The notes under the pieces are model-generated. The model was given only the letters and a program-made list of their open reading frames with translations. It did no database searches and was not told where the DNA came from. A stretch of DNA of 63,934 nt, filler included, from Collodictyon triciliatum (Eukaryota): the NCBI GenBank assembly GCA_043381765.1. It is 4 parts of 4 records of this genome, joined end to end, with 100 filler letters (N's around TTAATTAATTAA, not from the genome) between each part and the next. Parts side by side here need not be neighbours in the genome. Positions count along the whole stretch, not along the records: positions 1 to 21,532 come from JBHJMP010001187.1; 3 more parts are not named here. One strand, given 5' to 3'. This document shows positions 8,583-61,306 of this stretch, piece by piece. The translations under genes were made by a program, and so were the position numbers. The number at the start of each line of letters is the position of its first letter. Position 1 is the stretch's first letter.

Positions 8583-11393
8583 CTACAAAACCTCTCTGAG
8601 TTCCTTGAGATGCTCCTGCGCCGTTGAATTACCTTGTTCCAGCGACAGGAAGTAATACTCAAGCGCCTTCTGCAGATTCCTTTGCACAGAATAGCCTTCC
8701 TTGTAGAATAACCCCATCAAACACTGGCCCGTCGCATTTCCGAGGTCTGCCGACCTCCTGAACCAGCGCCCGGCTTCCTCCAAATCACTTTCCACGCCTT
8801 TGCCTTCGATATAGCAGAACCCAAGGCTGATTTGACACAACGCGTGGTTCTCGTCAGCGCCCTTGCGATACCACTCAACAGCTTTGCTCATGTCTGCTTC
8901 GACACCGCTCCCGTTTTCATAGCAAATCGCAAGACTGCGGTAAGCGTCCGCATAGTTGGATTTTGCCAAACGGAGGAATAAAGCAAACGCCTTTTGGCTG
9001 TCCTTACTGCATCCTTTGCCTTCCGAGTACAGAAGCGCAAGATGCCACATCCCTGATAGATTTTCAGAGTTGCTTGCTTTTTCATACCATTCGAATGCGA
9101 GTGTGTCATCCTGCGGCACACCAAGGCCCTTCTCGTAGCAGTAACCCAGCTGGTCCATGGCTGTTTCTGACTTGTTTTCGGCTGCCTTTCGATACCACTC
9201 CACTGCAGTCTCGTAGCTCTGCTCAACTCCGGCTCCGCTATAGTAACAGTGCCCGATGTTTGTCTGCGCATTACCGTTGCTTTGCTCAGATGCCCGATGG
9301 TACCAATCCAGAGCTTTCTCGTAGCTGACTTCGACTCCCATCCCGTGGTAGTGACACAGCCCGACATTGACAAATGCATCGTAATTCTTCTGGAGCGCGG
9401 CTTTCATGTGCCATTCATACGCCAAAGTAGGGGACTTTTGGACACCATCTCCGTTATAGTAGCAGATTCCAAGGTTGTTTTGGCCCCAGCTGTATCCCAA
9501 GAAGGCTGCTGCCTCATAAGATCGGTATGCCTTTCCGAGGCTGCGCTCTGTTCCAAGGCCGTTTTCATGGATAAGTCCCAAGTTATTCCATCCATTGGCA
9601 TAGTGCTGAGCTGCACTCTGTGCAAACCAATACGCTGCGTGTCCATATTTATCTTTCACTTCGAGTGTGTTTTTGAATGAGTGTCCGATATTATCTTGCC
9701 CGCTCGCATGACCCGCGAGAGCGGAGATGAGCCACCACTCGGTGGACATCACGGTGCATTTTGCAACACCTTCGCCTTCAAAGTAGCAATAAGCGAGGTT
9801 GTTTTGGGAGCACGCAAGCCCTGCTCGACTGGATTCTTCAAAGTAGCTGATAGACTTTGCAAAGTCTTTTGCAACGCCCCATCCACGATAAAGACAATAC
9901 CCTGTGAGATAAAAGAGGAAAGCATCTAATTTGGAGTTTTGAGAAATCCAGTCATATGCCTTGGCCAGCTCTTGCTCATTTAAAGATTGAATAAACAAAA
10001 GAAGCTGGTCGATTGTGTCCGTTGTTGATGGAAGTGGGATGATTTGTGGATGCTCTAGAGCCACTTGACGGAATGCAATGAGTGCCGGAACAAAGGCAGG
10101 GTCGAGAGCACGGGCGTATAGAAGAAGGCATTGCGCACGAATGTAGTTTCCTTTGGAAAACTCCATACAGCCCTCTTTTGTTGCGTCTTGTGCCGATAGA
10201 CTCATATCGACCATATTTATAAACCCAGGGCGTTGTTCTGAGGTTGACGAAGCATACTGTGTGAAATATTCCAGGGCTTTCATGTTGTTATGGGATATTC
10301 CTATGCCAAAGACCGCACAGATGGCGAGCTGAAGGACCGCATCTTTACATCTCTCTTTGCTGAGCTCTTCTAATTCCTGAAAATAATCCTGGTGAGGCAT
10401 TTTCAGCCGGTTGAGATAGAGTGTCGCGTAGCGAATGGCAATCGGCTGATTTTGGAGAGATTCGGCACAAATGCGAAGAAGGTTTTTGTCGACTTCACGA
10501 ATCGATGGTATTGAAGCCCATGTTTCCTGGTGCTCAGAGGACACAAACTCAGCTGCACTCAGACCAGGGATTTTTTTCATATAATGGGCACGAACGGGAG
10601 CTGAAAGTGAATGTATCCATAGGAATGCTTCAACAAGAGAGATTGAGTGGGTTAGGCCTGCGGCAACGATGGAGTCGGGTTCATTAGTGTCTCTGGGGAC
10701 TGTAGGAACGGGGTTTCGTGTCGATTCTTGCAGCAAATCAGAGACACTTATAGAGCCGTTGAGGCGGTAGGATGGTGAGAGGCAATGAGGGACTCGGATT
10801 GGGCCCAGGAGAAAAGTGGATAGGTCAGCCGTATTAATGAGGGTAGGGAGCAAATTGAGCCATTGAAAGGCCATCGACAACTGGCTCAGCGAGAGACTGC
10901 TCTCGAAGGCTGTGCAAGCGGCAATCAACTGGTCTACTGGCTTGATTCTCATCGAGCCAAATATTTTAGCGGCCAACTGCCCAACAAAATAGACATAGTC
11001 TGCTTCAGATGCATCTCTGCTTTCGTCTTCGCGTCTCCATTCACACACGGATAATCCAGGGCGAGTGGGAAAATGGACACCGAAGTGGGTTGCGCGGATA
11101 CGGCCTTCAGTATCGATGAAGAGGCACTCTGGGTTGGGGAGGGTGAAACAAAGCTGTGGGATGTTTGCCAGTTGCAAGAAATAGTTTGTGAGCATGGAAA
11201 AGAACTCCAGTCTTGCAGACACAGACTCTGATGGTGATGTAAGCGTTGACAAAAGTGGTTTCCACGAGAGCCATGACTCTGAGTGAGCAAGGCAGACATG
11301 CGAGTCAACAACAAAATGATCGATGGTGTGTACGAAGAGGTGCGGATGCTGCTGGATTGTTGATGAAAAGGGTGGCAGTGTGTTGGACTTTTG
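8583..11393 (-). CDS. Sel1-like repeat protein with a degenerate N-terminal kinase-like region; 5' end lost in the N gap
   Basis: Uninterrupted ORF of more than 930 aa. About 12 C-terminal 36-aa Sel1 repeats (e.g. AQTNIGHCYYSGAGVEQSYETAVEWYRKAAEN). The N-terminal part contains LPNPECLFIDTEGRIRATHFG and ADYVYFVGQL, which resemble kinase subdomains VIb-VII and IX. Confidence 0.88.
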   Translation of the reverse strand, partial: QKSNTLPPFSSTIQQHPHLFVHTIDHFVVDSHVCLAHSESWLSWKPLLSTLTSPSESVSARLEFFSMLTNYFLQLANIPQLCFTLPNPECLFIDTEGRIRATHFGVHFPTRPGLSVCEWRREDESRDASEADYVYFVGQLAAKIFGSMRIKPVDQLIAACTAFESSLSLSQLSMAFQWLNLLPTLINTADLSTFLLGPIRVPHCLSPSYRLNGSISVSDLLQESTRNPVPTVPRDTNEPDSIVAAGLTHSISLVEAFLWIHSLSAPVRAHYMKKIPGLSAAEFVSSEHQETWASIPSIREVDKNLLRICAESLQNQPIAIRYATLYLNRLKMPHQDYFQELEELSKERCKDAVLQLAICAVFGIGISHNNMKALEYFTQYASSTSEQRPGFINMVDMSLSAQDATKEGCMEFSKGNYIRAQCLLLYARALDPAFVPALIAFRQVALEHPQIIPLPSTTDTIDQLLLFIQSLNEQELAKAYDWISQNSKLDAFLFYLTGYCLYRGWGVAKDFAKSISYFEESSRAGLACSQNNLAYCYFEGEGVAKCTVMSTEWWLISALAGHASGQDNIGHSFKNTLEVKDKYGHAAYWFAQSAAQHYANGWNNLGLIHENGLGTERSLGKAYRSYEAAAFLGYSWGQNNLGICYYNGDGVQKSPTLAYEWHMKAALQKNYDAFVNVGLCHYHGMGVEVSYEKALDWYHRASEQSNGNAQTNIGHCYYSGAGVEQSYETAVEWYRKAAENKSETAMDQLGYCYEKGLGVPQDDTLAFEWYEKASNSENLSGMWHLALLYSEGKGCSKDSQKAFALFLRLAKSNYADAYRSLAICYENGSGVEADMSKAVEWYRKGADENHALCQISLGFCYIEGKGVESDLEEAGRWFRRSADLGNATGQCLMGLFYKEGYSVQRNLQKALEYYFLSLEQGNSTAQEHLKELREVL

Positions 11394-12568: not shown

Positions 12569-15500
12569 CTAAAACTCCTCAACTTTCGATTGAGACATGT
12601 CGTTCATTTCTGTGTCTTTTGACAGATGTATTCCAGTAAATGTCTTGAAAAAATATTGCGAAATGTAATTATCAGTGATTGAGTTCCAAAGAGAACTGAG
12701 CATAGATAAGAAACTTGTCAGCACCAATCTCAAAACAACAGGGCCAGCTTTGGAAAGGAAAACAACTCCTATCCCTCCATTCAGAATAACCACCAAAAGC
12801 ACCAGCACAACTTCGGTTTTTTGATTCAAATTGTTGTATCGGAAAAGTAGACTCAGCATCAAAGTAAAATAGAGAACCATGAGTGATTGAATTTGTGACT
12901 TTTTCAATACATTAGATATGAATGGCTTGAAGTATATGGTTGAAGCTATCATGAGAAACAGCAGCCACAATCCAAAGTAGATTTGAAGCGAAGCTGAAAA
13001 AAACGTGCTTATCATCACAATGACCAACTTTTGCATCATCATCACAACCTCCCAGAATTGGCACTTTTCCGTATAGCCATCGACCAGAAATCTGAAAAGG
13101 GCATATGTTTTGGACGTAGGATTGCTCAATGCCGCTTTTTTTCGAATAATTCGTATCAATATCACTATAGGACCGGCAAAACAATATGTAATCAGGAAAG
13201 CAAAAGAGATGCTTCTCCACAACTTGTATGTGACATCATCGCATAAAATTGACATATCCGCCTTCAAATAGCTCCTCTCTCCAAGTGTTTCACATGGAAA
13301 TATTTCAGAAATGCTCGAAGTGATTGAAGGATGGACAAAAAACAGCATAACTAGCATGGAGTATGTTACTTCGTGTTGAAAATGAGCAAATGTAAGATGG
13401 ATATTTGATATTTCTTTCTTGTAAAGCCGCCACATTTCTCTTAACAAAGTTAATACAACCATAACGCCTGTCATTATTATCGGACTTAACATAGAGTACA
13501 GCGCTTTGTCATATACTGACAGTCCAAGTTGACATTCCATCGGGTAGCTGTCTATAGAAAGTGAAAAGGAAAACAAAGCTGGAATTTTCATCACTGACAC
13601 GATGATTGTACTCCATTTTACATCAAAGTTTGCTAGGTATGTCAAAACTTGAAAATGAGTGGATAATGATTTCAGAATTTGAATATTCCCAGTTCTTGTC
13701 TGTCTTGACTGTTCTATCATGAAGAAAACAAAGGCAAGGGGAACAGCAAAGCTCAAGAAAATCAAGACAACATTGATACCCTTCGGTGGACATTTAATGC
13801 AAAAGTACCCTGCTTTTCCATATCCTTTTTCACAGACGCTGCATAAAGCTCCACTATATCCATCGGCACAGGTATTGTTTCCTCCATTACATGCATCTTG
13901 ATTTAAGCATTTGAAAGCGATGTATTCTCCATTTGAATTCGGAGCTTGCCAATATCCAGGTGCAACACTAAGGCTGCTACTTCCATCACAAATAAAACCC
14001 TCTGGACATGATTTACATTGCTTACTCTTGGAGTCAAGGTATGTGTTTGAAAGGCATTTGCAATCGTGTATTGATGTTGAGCCCGTCATATTTGTATATG
14101 AATTTGTAGGGCAGTCTTTGCACAAGGTTTGACCGTAATTTTCATTGAAAGTACCTGGAGAGCATTTGAAACATTCTTCCTGCTTTTCGTACCATCCTGG
14201 TTGACACTGACACGTAGAGTTTATCAATTTAAACCCATTCTTACAAACACAATCTGTCGAGTTCATGGAACCGTTGTTTTTGGTTGTAAATTTGTTCAGA
14301 CAAAGAAGACAGAAACCGGTGTCATTTGTGAATTTATATGAGCCAACTCTGCAGTTGACACATTGACTCCCATCCTCGAATTTTCCTGGGGGACATGTGC
14401 AAACACCGCCAAAAAACACATATGTATTCATGCATTCACAGTCTTGGAGTCTTACAGAGCCTTCTTTCTTAGTTGTAGAGCGTGTTGGACAAGAGTTGCA
14501 GTAGGTGCTTCCGGCTGAGCTGTAGCTTCCGTTTGGACATGAAATGCATGATGATTGATTGAATGAACCAGTTTTATTGTTAAATGTCCCAGCTGGACAT
14601 GATGTGCACGATGCTTGACCATCTCTATCATTCCATGTGCCTTGTGGACATTCAATACATGACTTGTTTCCATATGAGCCGGAGTTTGAGTTGAATGTGC
14701 CTCTTGGACAAGAATAGCATGAATTTGAGTCTTTTATAATTTCTTCTTTTTGATAGAATCCTGATGAACATAAGCTGCATGATGCGCTTCTCTCTGAGCT
14801 GTAGCTTCCATTAGGACATGTAATACATGACGATTGATCTAATGAGCCAGTTTTGTAGTTGAATGTCCCAGCTGGACATGATGTGCATGACGCTTGACCA
14901 TCTCTATCATTCCAAGTACCTTGTGGACATTCAATGCATGATTTGTCTCCATATGAGCCGGAGTTTGGGTTAAATGTGCCTTTTGGGCATGTATGACATG
15001 ATTTTGAGTCTTTAATGACACCTTCTTTTTGATAAAATCCTGATGAACACAAGCTGCATGATGTACTTCCAGATAAGCTGTAGCTTCCGTTTGGACATGA
15101 AATGCACGACGATTGATTGAATGAGCCAGTTTTGTTGTTAAATGTCCCAGCTGGACATAATGTGCATGATGCTTGACCATCTCTATCATTCCAAGTACCT
15201 TGTGGACATTCATTACATGATATATTTCCATATGAGCCGGAGTTTGAGTTGAATGTGCCTCTTGGACAAGAATAGCATGAATTTGAGTCTTTTGTAATTC
15301 TTTCTTTTTGATAGAATCCTGATGAACATAAGCTGCATGATGAGCTTCTTTCTGAGCTGTAGCTTCCATTAAGACATGATATGCACGATGATAGGTTAAA
15401 TGAGCCAGTTTTGTTATTGAATGTACCAGCTGGACATGATGTGCAGGACGCTTGGCCTTCTTTACTATTCCAAGTCCCTTGTGGACATTCAATGCATGAT

Positions 15501-18500
15501 TTGTTTCCATACGAGCCGGAGTTTGAATTGAATGTGCCTTTTGGGCAAGCGTAGCATGATTCTGAGTCTTTTGTGACGTCTTCTTTTTGATAGTATCCTG
15601 ATAAACATAAACTACATGATGCACTTCCACTTAAGCTGTAGCTCCCATTTGGACATGAAATGCACGAGTATTGATTGAATGAACCAGTTTTGTTGTTAAA
15701 TGTCCCAGCTGGACATGACGTGCATGATGCTTGACCATCTCTATCATTCCAAGTACCTTGTGGACATACAATACATGATTTGTTTCCATATGAGCCGGAG
15801 TTTGAGTTGAATGTGCCTTTTGGGCAAGCATAGCATGATTCTGAGTCTTTTTTGATTCCTTCTTTTTGATAGAATCCTGATGAGCATAAGCTGCATGATG
15901 TACTTCTTTCTGAGCTGTAGCTTCCATTTGGACATGAAATGCATGATAATTCATCAAACGATCCAGTTTTGTTATTGAATGTGCCAGCTGGGCATGAAGT
16001 GCATGATGATTGACCATCTCTATCATTCCAAGTGCCTTGTGGACATTCAATACATGATTTGTTTCCATATGAGCCGGAGTTTGAGTTGAATGCGCCTATT
16101 GGACAGGCATAGCATGAATTTGAGTCTTTAATGATTCCTTCTTTTTGATAGTATCCTGATAAACATAAACTACATGATGAACTTTTCTCTGAGCTGTAGC
16201 TTCCGTTCACACATGATATGCAAGATGATTGATTGAATGAGCCCGTTTGATTGTTGAATGTACCGGCTGGACATGATGTGCATGATGCTTGACCATCTCT
16301 ATCATTCCAAGTGCCTTGTGGACATTCAATACACGATTTATTTCCATATGAGCCGGATATTGAGTTGAATGTGCCTTTTAGACAAGCGTAGCATGATTTT
16401 AAGTCTTTTGTGACGTCTTCTTTTTGATAGTATCCTGATGAGCACAAACTGCATGATGAGCTTCTCTCTGAGCTGTAGCTTCCATTCGGACATGTAATAC
16501 ATGACGATTGATTGAATGAGCCAGTTTTGTAGTTGAATGTCCCAGCTGGACATGATGTGCATGATGCTTGACCATCTCTATCATTCCAAGTGCCTTGTGG
16601 ACATTCCATGCATGATGAGTTTCCATATGAGCCGGAGTTTGAGTTGAATTTGCTATTTGGACAAGAATGGCATGATTTTGAGTCTTTTGTGATTCCTTCT
16701 TTTTGATAGTATCCTGATAAGCATAAACTGCATGATGCGCTTCTTTCTGAGCTATAGCTTCCGTTAGGACATGTAATACATGACGATTGATCTAATGAGC
16801 CAGTTTTGTAGTTGAATGTCCCAGCTGGACATGATGTGCATGATGCTTGACCATCTCTATCATTCCAAGTACCTTGTGTACATTCGATACATGATTTATT
16901 TCCATATGAGCCGAAGTTCGAGTTGAATGTGCCTTTTGGACAAGCGTAGCATGATTTTAAGTCCTTTATAACTCCTTCTTTTTGATAGAATCCTGATAAA
17001 CATAAACTGCATGATGCGCTTCTTTCGGAGCTGTAGCTTCCATTTAGACATGAAATGCATGATGATTGATTGAATGAGCCAGTTTTATTGTTGAATGTAC
17101 CAGCTGGACATGATGTGCATGGTGCTTGACCATCCTTATCATTCCAAGTACCTTGTGTACATTCAATACATGATTTGTTTCCATATGAGCCGGAGTTTGA
17201 GTTGAATGTGCCTTTTGGACAAGCGTAGCATGATTTTGAATCTTTTTTGATTCCCTCTTTTTGATAGAATCCTGATAAGCAAAAGCTGCATGACGCGCTT
17301 CCAGCTGAGCTGTAGCTTCCATTAGGACATGGGATACATGATGATTGATTATATGAGCCAGTTTTATCGTTGAATGTACCCGCTGGACATGATGTGCATG
17401 ACGCTTGACCATCTCTATCATTCCAAGTACCTTGTGGACATTCGGTACATGACTTGTCTCCGAATGAGCCAAAGTTTGAGTTGAATGTGCCTTTTGCACA
17501 AGCATAACATGATTCCGAGTCTTTTTTGATTCCCTCTCTTTGATAGAATCCTGATGAGCATAAACTGCATGATATACTTCTTTCTGAGCTGTAGCTTCCG
17601 TTTGGACATTCAATACATGAATCACCAAATGAACCAGTTTTGTTATTGAATGTACCGGCTGGGCATGTTGTGCATTCATCTTTGTACTTACTCCCAAAAG
17701 TCCCTTGTGGACATTCAATACATGACAGATTGCCTGTTGAACCAAATCTTGGATTGTAAGTTCCATCGATACATTCTATACATGTCTTTTGGCCAGATAT
17801 TGGATTGTAAGAACCAGGTTGGCAAAGTTCACATGTGGATTCTCCTGAATTTGAAGAGAATTTCCCTTGAGGACACAATTGGCAACTGCTAACATCGGTT
17901 GATGCGACATTTGGATTGAAAGTCCCGGCTGGGCATTTTTCGCAGTTAGTTGATTTTGTTTTATTTGAATAAGTACCAGTGGAACATGGATTACAAAACT
18001 GATTTCCTTTCTCACTCATGAAAAACCCAGCAGGACAGTCAAAACAGCTCGACTTCCCATCAACGCTATTATATGTTCCAGGCTCACATAGAAGACAGGA
18101 TGAATTTCCAGCACCTCGGATGCTTGGATTGAATGTTCCTGCTGGACAAGAAGTACACGACCTATCGCCCTCATTACTGTAAAATCCAGCAGTGCAATTA
18201 TTACATGAAATTTGACCTTTAATATTGTTAAATGTTCCAGCCTCGCATTTTTTGCAAATTGATTGACCCACAAGATTATTGTATGTTCCTTCTCCACATG
18301 GAAGACAATCTTTAATGCTTGTTGAACCAGTAGATGGGTTGTAAGTTCCAGTCGGACAAGATGGACAAAAATTGAGCTCATTTCCGTTATTATAAGAACC
18401 GGATGGACACATTTCGCATGAATTTGATAGTTGGTTGAAAAAATATCCTCCTTGGCACGGACTCCAGACTTTGATGAATGTGTCTGTGCTTGCTGAAATA

Positions 18501-21118
18501 ATTTTTGAATCCGGAGTGGCAAAAACACTATTTACCGAATTGGTGTGACTAAAAAGTGTTCGAATTTCTCGTCCATCTGACATTGTCCATATTTTTACTG
18601 ATTTATCACTGCTTCCAGAGTGCAATTTCGTTCCATCAGGTGATATCGAAATGCTATTTACTGAGCTTGTGTGTCCAATAAGCGTTCGAATCAAGATACC
18701 ATCCGACATATTCCAAATCTTGATTGTGTTATCACTACTTCCAGATATGATTAGTAGCCCATCTGGAGATGTAATAACGCATCTTACAGCATTTCCGTGG
18801 CCGGTAATCGTTCTGATTAATGCTCCATCTGAAAAATTCCAAACTATTATGGAAAAATCAGCACTGCCTGAAATAATGTTGGTATTATCTGGCGTAATAA
18901 AAACAGAATTCACTGCTTTCGTATGCCCAGATAAGGTGCGAATTAAAATTCCATCTGAAACTTTCCAAATATTTATAGTCATGTCATCACTTCCTGATAC
19001 AATCACAGAATTATCTAGCAACATAGCAACGCTTCGAACAGCAGCGGTATGTCCGATAAATGTTTTTAATTGAGCACCATCCGAAAAATTCCACATTATG
19101 ACGGTATTATCACTGCTTCCTGACACGATTTTTGTTTCATCAGCTGAAACAATAATACTATTAACAGAATTTTTATGGGCATTTATCGAAAGCGATAGAG
19201 AACCGTCAGCATAATTCCAAATTTTAATTGTGTTATCGCTACTTCCAGACACAATTTTCGTTTTACCAGGGCTGAAAGCAACATTATTGACTGAGCCGCT
19301 GTGCCCTGAAACCGTCAAAGTCAAACTAAAATCTGGAAAATACCACATCTTAATTGTTGTGTCATCACTTCCAGACAAAAATATTGAGCCATCTGAGAGA
19401 ATTGATATTCCATTTATTGTAACTCCGTGTTCATTCATAATATTTATAGTCGTTCCACTTGATTGACTCCAAATTCTAATTGACCTGTCACTACTTCCAG
19501 AAATAATCTTTGAACCATCCGGAGAAATCGAAACACTTTTGATTATTCCTGTGTGCCCATTAAGAGTGTGAATTAAACTTCCATCCAAAATGCTGGTCAT
19601 TCTTATTGTTCTATCGCTGCTCCCAGAAACAATTTTCGTTCCATCTGGCGTTATAGCAACAGAATTTACTGCATCAGTATGAAAATTTATATTTTGTACC
19701 AATGTTCCGTCATTAAAATTCCAGACTTTGACGGTTTTGTCGGAACTTCCAGAAACGATTTTTGAGCCATCAGGAGTTAAAGCTACACTTGTGATTATTT
19801 CAGTGTGTCCATTTAATATGCGAATAATATTTCCGTCAGACATTCTTGTAATTTTTATTGTCTTATCACTGCTACCAGAAACAAGTATCTTTTCATTATT
19901 TGTAATGGCGACACAGTTCACTGATTCCATATGGACTTGAAATGATTTAATTAAAAAGCCATCATCGACATTCCATAACTTCATTGTTTTATCTGAACTT
20001 CCAGATATGACTTTAGAGTTATCAACAGTGAGCATCAATGCATTTACAATACCAGAATGACCAGCCATCGAACGAATGAAATTTCCATTTGACAGATTCC
20101 AAACTCTGATAATGTTGTCTGAATGCCCTGTAATAAAGATCGATTTAAAAGAGGATGTCACAATGGATGTCACTCTCGAGCCTCTCGAGTATATTGGGCT
20201 TCCGTCTGAGAGATTCCAGAGTCTCAGAGTATAGTCGTCACCGACAGATACAATTTTTGAGCTATCAGAAGTAACGGCAACATTCCAAATATTGCTTAAG
20301 TGCCCAAGCAATGCGCGAATCAAAGTTCCATCGGAAAGATTCCATACTCTTATTGTTCTATCGTTGCTTCCAGAAACGATTTTCAAGCTGTCATGAGTGA
20401 CAGCAACGCTGTAAATACCACCGGTGTGACCAATCAAAGTCCGAATCAAAGTTCCATCTGACAGAATCCAAATTTTGATTGTATTATCATTGCTCCCCGA
20501 AATTACTTTTGAGCCGTCAGGAGAAACAGCAACACTACGAACCCAATCTCCATGACCATTCAATGTGCGGATCAAAGTTCCGTCTGAAAGATTCCATATT
20601 TTGATTGTTTTATCTGAGCTTCCCGATACAATTTTTAGGCCGTCAGGAGTAATAGCAACACTACGAACAAAATTAGTATGACCGAGTATTGTCTGAATCA
20701 AAATTCCATCAGCAAAATTCCAGATTTTAATAGTTTTGTCAGCACTCCCAGATACCACTCTTGTCATATTTGGATTTACCACTATACTCAATATATCATT
20801 TGAATGACCGGTCAGTGTGCGAATCGAAGCTCCGTTAGATAGATTCCAAATTTTAATTGAATAGTCCCATCCACCAGATACTATTTTGGAGTTATCAGAT
20901 GTGACAGTGACACTTATGGTAACTCCAGGACCATTTATAGTTCGAATTAAAGCTCCATCAGATATGTTCCAAACCTTGATTGTCCTATCTCTGCTGCCAG
21001 AAATGATCTTGGTGCCATCAGGAGTGGTGGAAGAGCAAAATACTTGATTTATATGCCCATCTCCAGAAGTAAAAATCGAGGAAACTTGGCATGCAGTGGA
21101 CAAGAGCTGGCTCATCAT
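12569..21118 (-). CDS. Intronless 2849-aa surface/receptor-like protein: 21 WD40 repeats, Cys-rich (GCC2_GCC3/ephrin-receptor-like) stalk and multi-pass TM C-terminus
   Basis: Single ORF. I counted 21 repeats of the GH...SGSxDxTI(K/R)IW type, followed by CxxCPxGT(F/Y) repeats and several hydrophobic segments from INVVLIFLSFAVPLAFVFFMI onward. An upstream in-frame ATG at 21154 is separated from the ORF by a TAA. Confidence 0.92.
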   Translation of the reverse strand: MMSQLLSTACQVSSIFTSGDGHINQVFCSSTTPDGTKIISGSRDRTIKVWNISDGALIRTINGPGVTISVTVTSDNSKIVSGGWDYSIKIWNLSNGASIRTLTGHSNDILSIVVNPNMTRVVSGSADKTIKIWNFADGILIQTILGHTNFVRSVAITPDGLKIVSGSSDKTIKIWNLSDGTLIRTLNGHGDWVRSVAVSPDGSKVISGSNDNTIKIWILSDGTLIRTLIGHTGGIYSVAVTHDSLKIVSGSNDRTIRVWNLSDGTLIRALLGHLSNIWNVAVTSDSSKIVSVGDDYTLRLWNLSDGSPIYSRGSRVTSIVTSSFKSIFITGHSDNIIRVWNLSNGNFIRSMAGHSGIVNALMLTVDNSKVISGSSDKTMKLWNVDDGFLIKSFQVHMESVNCVAITNNEKILVSGSSDKTIKITRMSDGNIIRILNGHTEIITSVALTPDGSKIVSGSSDKTVKVWNFNDGTLVQNINFHTDAVNSVAITPDGTKIVSGSSDRTIRMTSILDGSLIHTLNGHTGIIKSVSISPDGSKIISGSSDRSIRIWSQSSGTTINIMNEHGVTINGISILSDGSIFLSGSDDTTIKMWYFPDFSLTLTVSGHSGSVNNVAFSPGKTKIVSGSSDNTIKIWNYADGSLSLSINAHKNSVNSIIVSADETKIVSGSSDNTVIMWNFSDGAQLKTFIGHTAAVRSVAMLLDNSVIVSGSDDMTINIWKVSDGILIRTLSGHTKAVNSVFITPDNTNIISGSADFSIIVWNFSDGALIRTITGHGNAVRCVITSPDGLLIISGSSDNTIKIWNMSDGILIRTLIGHTSSVNSISISPDGTKLHSGSSDKSVKIWTMSDGREIRTLFSHTNSVNSVFATPDSKIISASTDTFIKVWSPCQGGYFFNQLSNSCEMCPSGSYNNGNELNFCPSCPTGTYNPSTGSTSIKDCLPCGEGTYNNLVGQSICKKCEAGTFNNIKGQISCNNCTAGFYSNEGDRSCTSCPAGTFNPSIRGAGNSSCLLCEPGTYNSVDGKSSCFDCPAGFFMSEKGNQFCNPCSTGTYSNKTKSTNCEKCPAGTFNPNVASTDVSSCQLCPQGKFSSNSGESTCELCQPGSYNPISGQKTCIECIDGTYNPRFGSTGNLSCIECPQGTFGSKYKDECTTCPAGTFNNKTGSFGDSCIECPNGSYSSERSISCSLCSSGFYQREGIKKDSESCYACAKGTFNSNFGSFGDKSCTECPQGTWNDRDGQASCTSCPAGTFNDKTGSYNQSSCIPCPNGSYSSAGSASCSFCLSGFYQKEGIKKDSKSCYACPKGTFNSNSGSYGNKSCIECTQGTWNDKDGQAPCTSCPAGTFNNKTGSFNQSSCISCLNGSYSSERSASCSLCLSGFYQKEGVIKDLKSCYACPKGTFNSNFGSYGNKSCIECTQGTWNDRDGQASCTSCPAGTFNYKTGSLDQSSCITCPNGSYSSERSASCSLCLSGYYQKEGITKDSKSCHSCPNSKFNSNSGSYGNSSCMECPQGTWNDRDGQASCTSCPAGTFNYKTGSFNQSSCITCPNGSYSSERSSSCSLCSSGYYQKEDVTKDLKSCYACLKGTFNSISGSYGNKSCIECPQGTWNDRDGQASCTSCPAGTFNNQTGSFNQSSCISCVNGSYSSEKSSSCSLCLSGYYQKEGIIKDSNSCYACPIGAFNSNSGSYGNKSCIECPQGTWNDRDGQSSCTSCPAGTFNNKTGSFDELSCISCPNGSYSSERSTSCSLCSSGFYQKEGIKKDSESCYACPKGTFNSNSGSYGNKSCIVCPQGTWNDRDGQASCTSCPAGTFNNKTGSFNQYSCISCPNGSYSLSGSASCSLCLSGYYQKEDVTKDSESCYACPKGTFNSNSGSYGNKSCIECPQGTWNSKEGQASCTSCPAGTFNNKTGSFNLSSCISCLNGSYSSERSSSCSLCSSGFYQKERITKDSNSCYSCPRGTFNSNSGSYGNISCNECPQGTWNDRDGQASCTLCPAGTFNNKTGSFNQSSCISCPNGSYSLSGSTSCSLCSSGFYQKEGVIKDSKSCHTCPKGTFNPNSGSYGDKSCIECPQGTWNDRDGQASCTSCPAGTFNYKTGSLDQSSCITCPNGSYSSERSASCSLCSSGFYQKEEIIKDSNSCYSCPRGTFNSNSGSYGNKSCIECPQGTWNDRDGQASCTSCPAGTFNNKTGSFNQSSCISCPNGSYSSAGSTYCNSCPTRSTTKKEGSVRLQDCECMNTYVFFGGVCTCPPGKFEDGSQCVNCRVGSYKFTNDTGFCLLCLNKFTTKNNGSMNSTDCVCKNGFKLINSTCQCQPGWYEKQEECFKCSPGTFNENYGQTLCKDCPTNSYTNMTGSTSIHDCKCLSNTYLDSKSKQCKSCPEGFICDGSSSLSVAPGYWQAPNSNGEYIAFKCLNQDACNGGNNTCADGYSGALCSVCEKGYGKAGYFCIKCPPKGINVVLIFLSFAVPLAFVFFMIEQSRQTRTGNIQILKSLSTHFQVLTYLANFDVKWSTIIVSVMKIPALFSFSLSIDSYPMECQLGLSVYDKALYSMLSPIIMTGVMVVLTLLREMWRLYKKEISNIHLTFAHFQHEVTYSMLVMLFFVHPSITSSISEIFPCETLGERSYLKADMSILCDDVTYKLWRSISFAFLITYCFAGPIVILIRIIRKKAALSNPTSKTYALFRFLVDGYTEKCQFWEVVMMMQKLVIVMISTFFSASLQIYFGLWLLFLMIASTIYFKPFISNVLKKSQIQSLMVLYFTLMLSLLFRYNNLNQKTEVVLVLLVVILNGGIGVVFLSKAGPVVLRLVLTSFLSMLSSLWNSITDNYISQYFFKTFTGIHLSKDTEMNDMSQSKVEEF
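14500..17720 (-). repeat. Coding tandem array, 279-bp / 93-aa unit, 11 copies plus a degenerate flank
   Basis: The motif CPQGTWNDRDGQASC recurs 11 times. The DNA landmark ATCTCTATCATTCC occurs at 14621 and 14900, a spacing of 279. Confidence 0.95.
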
Positions 21119-21532
21119 AATACAAACTACAAGAAGAAATTGTTAGAAGGGCATTTGATTACTTAATATTTGGATTACCTACCAAAGGCAATTCTTTTTA
21201 GAGATAGACCTGAGTTTTCCTCCATGTTTTCTGTCAATACAATTCGTGAATATGTATTATTATGTACTTTTATCTTGTGAGAATGCAATTACAAGTCGCG
21301 CGATTGTATTATTTTTTAAAAAAAAAAACATTTAGATGATGATAAATCACTCGATTATTTATTTCGCCATGCTAATTTTTAATGATACTTATTGTTCAAT
21401 CTGCACTAGAATAATAAATCTTATTTCATCATATTCTTGCTTTAGAATTTCTCCAACTTTAAAAAAACGAAGCCCCAAATTACAATCATTCGAAAAGTCT
21501 AATTCGAGCTTGGATACATATGGCTGTAATAT

Positions 21533-21632
21533 NNNNNNNNNNNNNNNNNNNNNNNNNNNNNNNNNNNNNNNNNNNNTTAATTAATTAANNNNNNNNNNNN
21601 NNNNNNNNNNNNNNNNNNNNNNNNNNNNNNNN
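21533..21632. other. Artificial contig join (44 N + TTAATTAATTAA + 44 N)
   Basis: The same 100-bp structure occurs three times, and the 12-mer carries stops in all six frames. Confidence 0.97.
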
Positions 21633-21790: not shown

Positions 21791-22201
21791 TGCTCGCCCC
21801 ACCAACCGGCAAGGGGAACGTGAGTCAAAGGAAAGTCGGGAGTCATCCCAGTCAGCAGCCATTTGCATTTTCGTTTGTGATGCGGCACTTTTTTTTGCTC
21901 GTTTTTGGTTGTCTCTTTGTTTTTCCAGAAATAGAAAGTGGCCTTGCTGCACTATATTTAGAAAATATCCCCTTAGTACCTTGCTATATGTGGTGTTTAT
22001 AGCAATCACTTGATGATATTATTGCATCAAAAGTGGAACTCATTTTTCAGGGCGCAGAGAGGAACGCATTCTCGCCTGCAATCAGGCAGGTTTTGGTGGC
22101 CTTTCCAGTTTCTTTTGCTATCCCGCTGTGTAAGCCAATTACAACTTGGGCGCGACTGTGTTTTCCGTTTATTCCTTGCATTTACTGCTTTCCTTTTTGG
22201 T

Positions 22202-25200
22202 TTAGGCCTTCTGCTTGAGCGTGATTTTGTCTCCGAGGCTGAGTGCGATGCCCTGAGTCTTTGAGCGGATGCGGACATATCCCGTGAGTTTGGTTTCGCG
22301 GGTGCGCTCAACGCTGATGTTTGCCAAAGCGTCTTCGCCTGCAGCCACGAAGTTGCAAACAATATCCGTCGTAAGTAATCAGGTGGTTGATGCTCATCAC
22401 ACGAAATGAATAAGTGAATGATTAAATGATTCAATAAAGAATACTTGGAAGTGTGTCATGTGAAAAGAGAGCAGAGACGATGCCATACCAAAGACACTGC
22501 GCGCATACAGATTGGCGCTCAGGAAGCCGCAGTCGCCCTCCAAGACTTCGTCAGGGGTGAGGCATCGCATATTTGTGGATTTGCATATGTGCGCAAGGAA
22601 TTCGCGCATGTCCGAGATGTTTGTGTTGATGGCCACTTTGTTTTCCCATTCAAATTCGGCCCACATTGTGCGGAACTGCATGTCCGTGCAGAACGCGGGG
22701 GAGATGTAATCCATGATGTCTGATTAAGTAGACGGATTTGAGTGTTTGGAGTGTTTGGAGTGTTTGGAGTGTTTGGAGTGTTTGGAGTGTTTGGAGTGTT
22801 TGGAGTGTTTGGAGTGTTTGGAGTGTTTGGAGTTTTTGGAGTGTTTAGAGTGTTTAGAGTGTTTAGAGTGTTTGAGAAGGAGGCGAGAGTCGCAAATGAA
22901 AAAGGAAAATCATCGAACTGACGGTAGTATGGTAAATATCAAGGAACTGACCAATGTGAATCTCGTTCAAAACAACACAGTTTTTGTCTGGATGCGAGGC
23001 TGTGCCCGCAATGTCGTAGACGATGCTGCCAAAAATGATTCCAGTCTCGGTAGATGTAACCTATCGCAATTAATTGAAATGGTGGCTGTTCCAGCATTAA
23101 ACTAGTCGCAAAAGATATAATTGGATAAGATATTATCCGGAAGACTCAACACTGATTTCATTTTTACCTTGATATTTGCCTTGATTCTGCGGGAGTCCAA
23201 CGGCCCGATGGTATAGTTTTGCGGTCTTTCGCAGAGCTTCAAATCGCCTAGAATGATTTCATCAGGAAAGGTAAGAAATATAGACATGTATGCGAAATGA
23301 CTGCTTCAATACATTTTGAATTCTGGGGTGTGATAAGCATTTGTCTCACCCAGGGTTGCGAGCTCCAAACAAAGATTTTGAAGGGTGTCTGGTGTTTGAT
23401 TAACGACAAGAACATCTAATGAGATGAAAACAGAAAACTTAAATTAGAACAAAACGATTTGGTAGCCTACATGATACTATGAAAAGAAAAGGGTATAAGC
23501 ATATTGATGGCAAGCGCGGAGAAGATATATTTTACAGGTAACGAATGATGAATGTTCTGGCTTACCTAGTACGATGTCGTATTGATGCACGTTGACATAC
23601 GCCTCGGCGTAAACAGAGTCAGAGAATCCTATTGGAAGACAACCAAATTTGGCGGTTTGGAGGAGGAAATTCTCGCAGGTGAAATTATATAAACACCACC
23701 TTTGTGGTAAAGTGCACACAGGGTTATACTCGTAGGAATGAGATGCGTCGAGAACCTGTTAATTGGAAAATGCGGTTTAATCTTGCAGACTCGTCGCCCA
23801 CTTCAGCATTTCCAGTGGCGCGAATTAAATCAGCATCGACTGTGAAAATGAAAATTGAATGAGATAAGGCCGATAATAGGATTATAAAAGAAGACTTTGA
23901 AACCTGAGACCACACATTTTTTTCTGCTTTGCCATTCAAGAGATAGTTTGACTTGAAACGGTCACATTAGAGTATCACAGGAGAGAAAAAAAACATTTAT
24001 TTAGACATACAATCATCTTCCAGCTCGATATTTCCGCCGCGACGCCCCTTGAGGTGACGGAAACTAAGTGGTGCGTCCGGCTGGATTTCAGACGCTTGCT
24101 TCTTCTTTATGGCTTCCTAAACCAAGCAGAAGTTTTTTTAAAAAAAATTGTTTTGTTTTGGTACTAATGAAATTTATCTCAAATAATCATGGATGGAAAG
24201 GGGGGGGGGGGGGGAAAAAAGAAAAAAAAAAAAAAAAAAGGAAAAGGGGGGGGGGGGGGGGAACTGAACAGACAAAGAAAAGACAAAGGAAGTAATGAGA
24301 GAGAAAAATGACCAAGGATTGGATGAGAAGAAATTAAAGAGGTACCTTGGGGTCAATGAGAGACTGCTGATATTGCTTTCGTTGGCGAGATGTTTTCACA
24401 TAGGACGACTTGCAGTCGGAAATGAATGCCAACCTGAACACCGGGAAGGATAAAATACAATAATAATCAAACGATAGCTCGTATAATGTGCGCTTCGCTT
24501 ATGTATAGTGAATGAGAATGGCGGTTTATACTTTGATTGCTCGTTCGCCTCAGCGAGAATACGCATGGACAAGACAATGCGGTCATGGCTGTCTGTGTCG
24601 ATACCTTGGCTAACAAGCCCGCCTTTCCCAAAGCGGATGGTAGATGCGCCAACGAGAAGTGCCTGGGTGAAGATATCAATAAAGAGACATGTTTATGAAA
24701 CTTAGGGCTGTCGTGTGTGCGTTGATAAATCCTATAAAAGAACGTATAAATCGATGTTATTTCTAGGTGTTGGGGTTTGTCTTTGAAAAGAGAAAATGAA
24801 TTACTTACATCAGCAACAATTTTGTTGTAGATAGGTGCTTCCACCTGACCTTGCAGCTTCAAAATGAGTTTTACCATGGTATTCAGAACCACGGAGGCGA
24901 CAAAAAAGTCACCTCCCAGAATCAATCCTGTGAGAGAGAGTAAAGAATTATAGGTCAGTACATGTTCGTTTTTATTTTCACAAGATTTTACGTCGAAGGT
25001 GAGAGAGGTAATAAGGGACAATTTTGCATTATGGAATTGGCCTAATGACTGGAATTACAGAACTATAGATGGGGGAAAAGGTGTTGAATTTACCTCGGAG
25101 ATGTGAATCCTTTGTGGTTGGCTTATCACCTTCTGCTGCAGACACTTGTGTTGCGTAGGTTCCTATGACCACATGAATGAGAGCATTTCACGAACTTTCT

Positions 25201-28200
25201 GTGTAAATAACATGTTTCGTATGATGAAATGCACAGTCAATGATGTTCATTAGTTACCATCTGAAAGTACACGGGTATTGGTGACTTTTGGTGCGGATGT
25301 GGCTTTAGTCTCTTGCTTTTCAGTCTTCCGTGCACACATAGATGTGTAAGAATACACACATGATATAATTTAGAAATTTGCCTCGTGTAATGGGTGAATT
25401 AAGGAGGAATAAGCGCAGGATTCCACAACAACTTCAAAACACTGAGATGTGATTGCTTACAACAGCTTCGTCTTGGATGAAAGGAATATTCCCCAAGTTT
25501 GATTTAATGACATCAAGCCCATTCAGAATCTCCTCACAAGTCTCAGAATATTCACTGAGCAACCAGAGGGCAGAGCGGATAACCTTACTGGAGCGAATCT
25601 GGTAGAATAAATCTAGCAACTTTTGAATGACAGATTGGCGGAGCGAAGGGTACGCTTCGGTGGCCTCACTATCAATACATTATTCGACAATATTTAACAA
25701 ACATGTTTGTTTTACTGTTTTGTTTTTTTAATTAAAGAAAGCTGCGAATGAAATTTTATGATAATAACTATTTGCAAAATAATGATGACCAACCGGACAA
25801 ATGTGATTACGTCTGAAGCAGAAACGGCATTCGAGTCTCCCAAGAAATCCATCAGGACCTTATGTTACGTGATACATATAAATATATTTCTGGTAAAGAA
25901 GGATGCACCAAAGATCAGGGGAAAGGTATTGAACGGTGTATATCGTGTCTTGTTGGAGAAGAGAATATTCAGGCTGGTAGAATTATGTTGCATAAATGGT
26001 GATTGACTAACATGGACAACACTTCCAGCAACAGCGGGGAACTTCACAGCGCATTGGTGGATCGTTTGGATCAGAAGTTGGCGATACTCAGCAGACTCCT
26101 TCATTTCGTAGCAATTGGCGCGGGGAAAGACACATATTTATCATTATTAGTGTGCATTCGCACCTTTCTTAATTAAAGCAAGTTAAGAAAGAGAAAAGTG
26201 AATGCTTTTTTTTTCGTACTTTTTCGATCTCTTTGCTTTGAGTTTTGCTAATCTCCTTTTTAAGAAGCAACACCACTTCGTCAACATTTCTCTGCGTGAT
26301 CAAGTCCAGCGTGATCTCCAATGTTTTCTTGCGGATGTCGATGCTTGGGCTGAACAGTGGATGTAGAGTATATTAATGGTCGTATGGAGTGAGGGAAAGA
26401 AAATTTCCAGCTCTTTATATATAGGCGCTTTCAATTATGTCAGATATCTTACCTGACCAAGGCGCGCATCACGTCCATAAGCAGTTCTTGCATGATTTTA
26501 GGGTGATTTGATTTAATTTCAACCAGCCGATCCAAAACGATGATTTTTACGTTATTATCACTCTCCTGCGGTTGTTAAAAAAAATAGGAATAATTAAATA
26601 AAAGGAAAAATAAAAGGAAAAATAAAAGGATATCCCTATGGAAGTATGTGCGATATGAATGCTACCATGTAACTTCATATATCAGGGCACTCACGTTGAC
26701 CAGGAGCTGAATGAAAGCGCCAGTAGCTGCTTGAATAAGGAACTTGGCGCTGGATAGAGATATCAAGGTAACAGCACTTTCTAAATGTATAGTAATATTT
26801 CGAAATTAAGTTGTGCAACGCCGAAAGATGCCAGGTGCCGAGGTATACTGTAGTTGGCGGTAATATGATGAGTGATTGAAGAGAACCACTACCGTACCAT
26901 ATTGGACAGCAGGAGAAGACGATTGAAGTAGCGCATGAGCGCACTTCAAGTATTTAGACTATTGCGAAAAAAAAATGCTTTAAATGAGTCGTGTCAACAA
27001 GTATGCGTGTAAAGTATTGGGAATATTAGTAATAAAAATAACAATAATTAGAAAAATCATGGATTAAAAGATAAAGTCTACTTTATCAGCGGGCTGAGTC
27101 TTGCATATTTTTCGGATAAGCTCAACAGCAACGAGTTGAAGCATTTCTCCCCAGCTCGGCACCTAAATTGAAGAAAAGATGAATAACACATCGGGCATAT
27201 ATTTGGGAATAATACGGTAATGAATAAAAAGGGAAGGTATGGACATTTCGCCCCTTTATGTTACACAAGATATCATTTTCAACTCTACCGATTCGAGATT
27301 GGAAGAAAGGTATTCGATGGCTTTTTCTTGTGCGCAGTTAAACAGCATCATAAAAGCATTCCTCTTGCAGCTCAGATCAGATTCCTGTGTTTATGCATCG
27401 ATTTTTTAAGCTTGTTTTTTGCTTTGGTATTTAAAACTATCATAAATGGACACTCTACTCATAGAAGAAACGCCGCCTTTTAAGGTGATATGTAAAGACG
27501 AGAAAGTAAGAGTGTCAGCATAACAAAACAAAAGAAAACCAATTGCTATCTGGCAACTTCGATAGGAAGCGAACTTACGCTTTGGAGAAAGTTGTAGATG
27601 ACATCAGGGGCATCAGGACACAAAGCATCGGATATTCGGTAGACTGAGAAAAGAGTTAGAACGGCATTGCGCTTCACATACGAGTGGCGATGCTCCAGGT
27701 TGGAACGGATGGATGGGACAAGGGGCTCCAGAATCTCCGGTTCCTTCAGCTTTGACAAAAAACGAAGTGCAGAGCCGCGGACATACTCGTTGTGAGAGTT
27801 GAGATACACACGAAAGTAATTGCTAAGCGATTTTTTTTGTACGATTTCGACTCATTAGTAATCGATCCAATAAAGTGTCTGCATATATATATACACACAC
27901 ATCTTATTTGGTAGAATGGTTTGATTATTCGTGATATCCTCAATTGCAACATAGAATAAACCACAAAGACAGTCACAGAGACATATTCAGCAGCATAGTG
28001 ATAGCGAGTTGTAAGTCAGTGCCAACCAAGCGAGAATCATCTCGGGCAGAAGCTTGCCGTCAGCCCCGTAAATATCGACCGACTCCCAGTAAAGCAGAAC
28101 CATTTTGATCACCTCGTGCTCTTTCATCGGCATGCAGAAGCGAATCACAGACATGATCAAAGGCTGCAGAGACTCGCCGTTCAACATGCTTAGAATCGCC

Positions 28201-42963: not shown

Positions 42964-43063
42964 NNNNNNNNNNNNNNNNNNNNNNNNNNNNNNNNNNNNN
43001 NNNNNNNTTAATTAATTAANNNNNNNNNNNNNNNNNNNNNNNNNNNNNNNNNNNNNNNNNNNN
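42964..43063. other. Artificial contig join (44 N + TTAATTAATTAA + 44 N)
   Basis: Same structure as the join at 21533. Confidence 0.97.
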
Positions 43064-61206: not shown

Positions 61207-61306
61207 NNNNNNNNNNNNNNNNNNNNNNNNNNNNNNNNNNNNNNNNNNNNTTAATTAATTAANNNNNNNNNNNNNNNNNNNNNNNNNNNNNNNNNNNNNN
61301 NNNNNN
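61207..61306. other. Artificial contig join (44 N + TTAATTAATTAA + 44 N)
   Basis: Same structure as the other two joins. Confidence 0.97.

Follow-up and report, generated by a model that had tools for sequence, protein, structure and literature searches.

Background

Variable surface repertoires are known that use immunoglobulin, leucine-rich repeat (LRR) or lectin folds, and WD40 domains are usually cytosolic. For the HNWD repeats of Podospora anserina, the available part of PMC1805685 describes positively selected codons 7, 9, 25 and 27, which surround the conserved codons 8 and 26 on the top face of the propeller. The TRPW channels of choanoflagellates carry intracellular WD40 propellers on a channel, according to the available excerpt of bioRxiv 10.64898/2026.06.15.732144. 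Here, a gene of Collodictyon triciliatum (GCA_043381765.1) is described that lies in a stretch of 63,934 nucleotides (nt), hereafter the window, in which parts of four records are joined end to end. It encodes 21 WD40 blades on a cysteine-rich stalk and a multi-pass membrane domain and is, judged from its sequence, probably a variable cell-surface binding receptor from a large lineage-specific family.

Architecture of the putative receptor gene

The gene, all coding features of which are on the minus strand, is located on contig C1187 and ends close to the contig edge. The frame 12569-21142 is open across 2857 codons, and the predicted protein has 2866 amino acids (aa) once exon 1 is joined to exon 2 (12569..21126; open frame and splice model). 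From the N- to the C-terminus, it consists of a leader, 21 WD40 blades, an Ephrin_rec_like Cys stalk, a multi-pass membrane domain and a tail. The fusion of 21 WD40 blades to CxxC-rich repeats and a multi-pass membrane domain, proposed in a first-pass annotation of this DNA, is borne out by this single open frame. The same applies to the reported lack of a transmembrane segment between head and stalk, as a hydropathy scan found no hydrophobic segment anywhere between the leader and the membrane domain.

A profile built from the gene's own repeats places the 21 blades at aa 28-900, where the Pfam WD40 profile picks up 20 stretches. Blades 1-7 (20195..21079), presumably the distal propeller, are hypervariable by site entropy and omega across the family. 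Blades 8-14 (19322..20191) are less variable and blades 15-21 (18443..19309), the stalk-proximal propeller, least variable. AlphaFold modelling, suggested earlier as a check of the head, was carried out for 19 paralogous heads and gave four-stranded propeller blades throughout, with a mean predicted local distance difference test (pLDDT) score of 90.9. The best solved-structure match is the highly repetitive propeller 2ymu with 37% identity. The earlier description of the repeats as mutually similar holds most strongly for blades 2-7 and less so for blades 9-14, with mean framework identities of 0.56 and 0.49, respectively, in this gene. Mean framework identity within a gene is higher in blades 2-7 than in blades 9-14 in 17 of 19 genes, with a tie in one.

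The leader requires an intron model. The ATG at 21154 is followed by an in-frame TAA at codon 4. Splice models were enumerated with all three phases allowed and scored by donor match and hydrophobicity. The best model starts at the ATG at 21225 and has a 43-nt exon 1 (21183..21225), with the start codon and the first half of a predicted signal peptide, followed by a 56-nt phase-1 GT-AG intron (21182-21127) with a CTAAC branch-like motif. This predicted intron contains both the ATG at 21154 and the TAA. The second half of the predicted signal peptide (21089..21126; hydropathy and family pattern) provides the hydrophobic core and a cleavage site before Gln, so that the spliced leader runs from basic through hydrophobic to small residues. 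The interrupted leader seen previously is retained as a predicted signal peptide split by an intron, but the ATG at 21154 falls within the predicted intron and the likely start is at 21225.

The intron pattern is a feature of the family: a phase-1 intron within the leader was chosen in 45 of the 48 genes with a complete 5' end, the remaining three comprising one phase 0, one phase 2 and one gene without a model. In the closest paralogue, L091, the intron carries a 1-nt deletion and the acceptor is changed from TAG to CAG (AG kept). Since such a deletion would shift a reading frame, a frameshift is evidently tolerated there, which was counted in favor of the intron. Exon 1 differs from that of L091 by five changes, three of which are synonymous as read by eye. 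An alternative genetic code for the TAA, the sole internal stop in 2862 codons, was considered and rejected because the intron accounts for it.

A large family with modular heads and stalks

A membrane-domain search of the 75-Mb genome yielded 215 candidates; 95 were scored, all of which matched, and these are distributed over 91 contigs with identities of mostly 50-79%. The gene thus belongs to a large family, for which this genome contains at least 95 membrane-domain matches. WD40 repeats are found upstream in 55 of the 70 loci examined, while in 14 loci the contig stops within the stalk and the remaining locus is broken upstream. Paralogues combining the same membrane domain with a different head, which the first-pass annotation had proposed to look for, were not seen among these loci, the 15 without WD40 never reaching the head.

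Heads and stalks vary as modules. Exactly 7, 14, 21 or 28 profile matches (24, 6, 4 and 1 genes, respectively) were counted in 35 of the 47 paralogues that have a 5' end, and most of the other 12 are one or two blades off a multiple of seven. Stalk length ranges from 0 to 140 CxxCxxG units. On a tree of 36 membrane domains, with head size rounded to a multiple of seven, 12 changes of head size are needed against a mean of 13.0 after shuffling (49 of 200 shuffles as low), so head size is not clustered on the tree. The tree does not include 20 of the 56 rows of the alignment, most of them because of an incomplete or irregular head. The nearest membrane domain, that of L021 with 96% identity, belongs to a gene with a seven-blade head and a different leader.

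Several loci have unusual architectures (all on the minus strand). L100:2-5176 has at least 41 WD40 blades behind a leader-like start, and L104:2568-9899 has 48 blades, where a Cys stalk was not seen. In L102:3-8483, a stalk carries at least 25 blades. L090:34-2235 is a stalkless family member, with seven blades directly joined to the membrane domain. Irregular heads are found in the members L071:37-4923 (8 matches over aa 71-486, stalk from 661) and L069:43-5637 (13 matches over aa 31-909); these may contain divergent blades or another domain.

Variability of the outermost propeller

Site variability was calculated for 317 first-propeller blades from 54 genes. The most variable offsets from the invariant Asp are -19, -1, -17 and +1 (3.9, 3.7, 3.6 and 3.3 bits), which is the spacing of the HNWD codons 7, 9, 25 and 27 given in the accessible part of PMC1805685. 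In the AlphaFold head model, the four sites map to the beginning of strand a and to the turn between strands b and c. In 19 long-headed genes, the four-site entropy amounts to 2.3-3.0 bits in blades 1-7 and to 1.0-1.8 bits in blades 8-21, with a sharp step at blade 7/8; the remaining sites of blades 1-7 have 0.7-1.0 bits. Of the four-residue sets, 127 of 130 are distinct in the first propeller, whereas the figure for blades 15-21 is 61 of 133. Trp and Tyr account for 15% of the residues at the four hot sites.

A codon model was fitted to 110 of 325 first-propeller blades and 110 of 324 later blades. The ratio of nonsynonymous to synonymous substitution (omega) in the first propeller is 2.21 at the four sites (against omega 1: 2 x delta lnL 5.2, 1 degree of freedom, p about 0.02) and 0.20 at all other sites. 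In the later blades, it is 0.45 and 0.18, respectively. The analogy to HET-E-type sensors drawn in the first-pass annotation is strengthened by these results, since it is at the HNWD positions that the seven distal blades vary.

As in HNWD, an exchange of repeat units, both inside a gene and from one gene to another, is suggested by the closest blade pairs, of which only 2/11 share the blade index and 5/11 lie within one gene. In 22 close pairs, 40 of 88 hot codons differ at 2-3 bases, and the same hot codons recur in new combinations; this fits an exchange of short tracts. Identity to L091 amounts to 93-98% in the leader and intron of the receptor gene, falls to 66-84% across blades 1-7 and is mostly 86-97% beyond.

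Stalk, membrane domain and topology

The Ephrin_rec_like stalk (13901..18448) comprises about 1500 aa with 167 Cys, 77 CxxC, 35 Ephrin_rec_like stretches (Pfam) and 46 sequons. Within it, a tandem array (14515..17675) has a unit of 279 nt (93 aa, five CxxC) in 11.3 copies with 85% matches. The fraction of Asn in sequons exceeds the expectation from composition in the stalk (0.346 vs 0.248) and is near it in the membrane part (0.169 vs 0.154). A juxtamembrane DUF7630-like Cys module follows at 13790..13897 (E 1.4e-5; 25.6 bits, below the 27-bit cut-off); DUF7630 is matched at E<=0.01 in 55 of 56 paralogues.

The sequon W-N-[ILFM]-S, highlighted before, closes 9 of the 21 blades. In the family, W-N-x-S/T stands at the end of 210 of 514 blades, compared to 58 of 2086 blades among the best 150 matches from outside, a control set that contains some leader-bearing proteins. 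The enrichment is confined to this position, since N-x-S/T over whole heads is not commoner than expected from Ser and Thr content (0.248 vs 0.237), and Ser is common at this place even where Asn is missing (83/212 vs 211/302). The proposal that head sequons independently prove secretion therefore holds only in part; the blade-end sequons are supporting but not decisive evidence, given the lack of enrichment over whole heads and the non-independence of the blades.

The membrane domain (12749..13777) is predicted to contain nine helices by AlphaFold (pLDDT 72) and hydropathy, compared to seven in the fold of G protein-coupled receptors. With helix bounds set by hand, loop charges were counted in 56 paralogues. 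Loops 1, 3, 5 and 7 are basic (K+R/D+E 2.2/1.3, 5.1/3.0, 4.8/2.7 and 2.8/0.2), loops 2 and 4 carry a net acidic charge (1.6/4.0 and 3.5/5.4) and contain conserved Cys, and loop 8 is short and slightly basic. This alternation over nine helices indicates that the N-terminus is outside and the C-terminus inside. The predicted cytosolic tail (12572..12748) has about 57 aa and an E-M-x-D/E motif that recurs in paralogue tails.

Searches for the identity of this domain gave leads rather than an assignment. In the Atlas, it is placed at 0.94-0.95 among eukaryotic DUF7630, Ephrin_rec_like and PF06011 clusters. PF06011, the profile of the fungal Flc/Pkd2 proteins, is found on 12-13% of the members of neighboring clusters, which is a lead only; the profile itself matches 0 of 56 paralogues at E<=0.01. 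A genome-wide search with PF06011 was likewise empty, but it also missed its control. Ion_trans was not matched in the membrane domain in a Pfam scan of the receptor gene and the 56 paralogues. Fold searches gave no clear match and exclude no family: the best Foldseek hit has E 0.12, and the best VIA-align Z of 8.1 (Hrd1, rmsd 6.8; an OST subunit, rmsd 3.6) corresponds to helical-bundle background. Outside homologues were found by sequence, with E values of 1.9e-16 to 1e-4 in a single-sequence search and 1e-37 to 1e-23 with a paralogue profile in a set of 271 proteins. The named heads of 15 such homologues are beta-helix, TIG, LRR or ANF/Bmp/Kelch/FN3, several have no Pfam match, and WD40 is found in none of the 15.

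An extracytosolic head, as assumed in the first-pass annotation, is supported by the intron-split signal peptide, the loop charges, the extracellular-type heads of outside homologues and the sequon enrichment of the stalk; the N-terminus is accordingly predicted to lie outside the cytosol.

Genomic neighborhood

Directly downstream of the receptor gene and on the same strand is a Sel1-repeat frame of 936 aa (window 8583-11393, minus strand) with 10 Sel1 stretches and an N-terminal half of no assigned domain, which looks intronless and runs into an assembly gap. An intron-rich gene at 22200-27500 (minus strand), which resembles coatomer beta (COPI-beta), belongs to another contig, C1191. As the window consists of joined contigs, this gene at 22-27 kb is no true neighbor. 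Positions 21533-21632, 42964-43063 and 61207-61306 are N-flanked linkers between separate contigs and have no biological meaning.

Proposed function and alternative explanations

In the proposed mechanism, the spliced signal peptide would target head and stalk to the secretory pathway for glycosylation and disulfide bonding. The nine-helix domain is predicted to anchor the protein with its short tail in the cytosol, and the stalk would keep the propellers at a distance from the membrane. At the surface, the outermost propeller would offer its 28 variable top-face residues, four per blade, as a binding site, the inner propellers acting mainly as spacers. New specificities could arise when blades or parts of blades are exchanged, either inside one gene or between genes, in combination with selection on the four codons, and recombination in the repeats could shift head number and stalk length. 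Candidate ligands might be surface molecules of prey, microbes or other cells. The weakest step is the output, which could conceivably pass through the Flc/Pkd2-like membrane domain or a partner of the tail. The full version of this scheme, in which an outward repertoire of 100+ WD40 genes with NLR-like blade shuffling and four-codon selection is coupled to an Flc/Pkd2-like nine-helix signaling domain and tells prey, pathogens or kin apart, can be put forward only tentatively.

Several observations weigh against the interpretation as a variable surface receptor. The signal peptide of the receptor gene itself is only moderately hydrophobic (10-residue Kyte-Doolittle value 2.1). The excess of omega over 1 is modest (2 x delta lnL 5.2), is based on 110 sampled blades, and could be biased by recombination, by near saturation and by an elevated number of synonymous changes at the hot codons. 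The variability pattern was already visible before the four sites were fixed from PMC1805685. A frame break separates head and anchor in 11 of the 55 WD40-bearing loci, and some members may therefore be dead or mis-assembled. No catalytic domain was found in the tails, which have 45-59 aa in 29 paralogue rows, and the link to Flc/Pkd2 comes from language-model features and helix count only.

The frame-broken copies also fit a variable coat or decoy, whose head would be targeted by viruses, parasites or predators and vary for escape instead of binding. The large family, the CxxC-rich stalk and its many sequons suit such a role, and positive selection fits escape as well as it fits binding. Against it, the variation is restricted to four top-face sites of one propeller and does not extend over the exposed surface at large. 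The share of Trp and Tyr at these sites resembles the make-up of a binding site, and a nine-helix anchor seems to exceed what a coat needs. This explanation is considered unlikely.

A similarly unlikely location, with slightly less in its favor, is the lumen of an organelle such as a food vacuole or extrusome, where the head, possibly shed, would bind cargo or prey. All topology evidence says 'not cytosolic' and nothing finer, and the tail motif could serve as a sorting signal; stalks of up to 140 CxxCxxG units would better suit projection from the cell surface.

It appears improbable that the protein is a broad-specificity structural adhesin or tether whose hot codons reflect relaxed constraint and gene conversion. 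Here, the likelihood test reaches only p about 0.02 and the synonymous rate is also raised at the hot codons (pS 0.28 vs 0.06, in pairs chosen on other codons), but the same sites are constrained from blade 8 on (omega 0.45), the step at blade 7/8 is sharp, and the pattern agrees with the known recognition system HNWD. A cytosolic head, as the general habit of WD40 domains and the intracellular propellers of TRPW channels or NLRs would suggest, is hardly credible given a leader kept across the family, no membrane segment before the sequon-rich stalk with its 167 Cys, and loop charges that point to an outside N-terminus.

As a variable surface receptor, the gene suggests a new kind of recognition repertoire of around a hundred related proteins at the surface. 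Intracellular NOD-like receptors (NLRs) are known to carry diversifying WD40 arrays, which the family would combine with surface display. The 28 named residues of the outermost propeller are candidates for binding. The family could help to explain how protists recognize prey, pathogens or kin. It could also give a first entry, from the ligand side, to a widespread uncharacterized family of nine-helix proteins and serve as a natural library from which secretion-compatible WD40 binders could be drawn.

Comparison with known systems

In the literature searched, no account of the WD40-stalk-nine-helix architecture was found, and the available part of PMC12716839 contains no mention of WD40. WD40 joined to this stalk and anchor was absent from the best 150 of 396,652 matches and from the 120 matches listed of 1866, both swamped by WD40 arrays. 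In the set of 271 proteins, WD40 was joined neither to a CxxCxxG stalk nor to the receptor membrane domain, and an Atlas search with a whole paralogue gave only a 0.81 lead. From these shallow searches, the statement that a canonical GH-WD head on this stalk and anchor is not found outside the genome is a weak negative. The outside high-repeat WD40 proteins P0116, P0119, P0085, P0037 and P0008 start with signal-peptide-like leaders. Exported WD40 arrays may be common in prokaryotes, judging from such sequences, and could be a source of the head.

By its anchor, the receptor belongs to a widespread eukaryotic multi-pass family with interchangeable extracellular heads. The uncharacterized proteins P0003-P0005 and P0274-P0285 share a homologous membrane domain (about 20-23% identity across most of its length for the best matches) and the DUF7630 module, and some have an Ephrin_rec_like stalk. 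Their heads, where named, are beta-helix, TIG, LRR or ANF/Kelch, whereas the WD40 head found here occurs in 0/15.

The title of a study of Pkd2 of Schizosaccharomyces pombe (PMC9727806) reports stretch-activated calcium permeability. The available part of bioRxiv 10.1101/2022.08.11.503631 describes S. pombe Pkd2 as having a signal peptide, an extracellular N-terminal domain and nine predicted helices. Fungal Flc/Pkd2 proteins (PF06011, 'TRP') share with the receptor, for which these features are predicted only, a signal peptide, an extracellular N-terminal domain, nine helices and a cytosolic tail. As far as the source describes them, they differ in an Ig-like lipid-binding domain that is not found here, and the PF06011 profile is unmatched in the receptor.

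Partial precedents for an extracellular propeller on a Cys-rich stalk are RCC1-headed proteins and the CRINKLY4 ectodomain. The metagenomic proteins P0272 and P0273 carry a usually intracellular propeller behind a leader and on a 42-unit CxxCxxG stalk, as here, but the propeller is RCC1 instead of GH-WD, there is one C-terminal hydrophobic stretch, and the nine-helix domain is unmatched. In plant CRINKLY4/ACR4, a cysteine-rich domain carries a glycosylated propeller of seven blades outside the cell, for which the authors use the name WD40; its disulfide-locked blades are closest to BLIP-II/UVR8, and a single helix and a kinase follow (excerpt of bioRxiv 10.1101/2020.08.10.245050). In contrast, the receptor has canonical GH-WD repeats with 8 Cys in the first 920 aa, which form its head, no kinase and a tail of about 57 aa.

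Choanoflagellate TRPW proteins are an expanded protist family with variable WD40 number and a membrane domain, linked to prey sensing (available parts of bioRxiv 10.64898/2026.06.15.732144 and.732245). Their propellers are intracellular and their channel domain is of the six-helix voltage-gated type, whereas the head is predicted to be extracytosolic here and Ion_trans is not matched.

The closest parallel is provided by the HNWD/NWD NLRs (HET-D, HET-E), in which, according to the part of PMC1805685 available, high-similarity WD40 blades are likewise exchanged within and between genes, and the four diversifying codons of each blade form two pairs around conserved residues on the top face. Those proteins are intracellular and have a NACHT domain, for which there is no room upstream here: the WD40 array begins some 30 aa into the protein, and the remainder is taken up by stalk and membrane domain. 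The receptor instead combines a predicted signal peptide with a Cys stalk and a nine-helix anchor, and diversification is, unlike in HNWD as described there, restricted to the first of three propellers, blades 1-7. The receptor would work like an HNWD sensor turned outward, yet it is no NLR.

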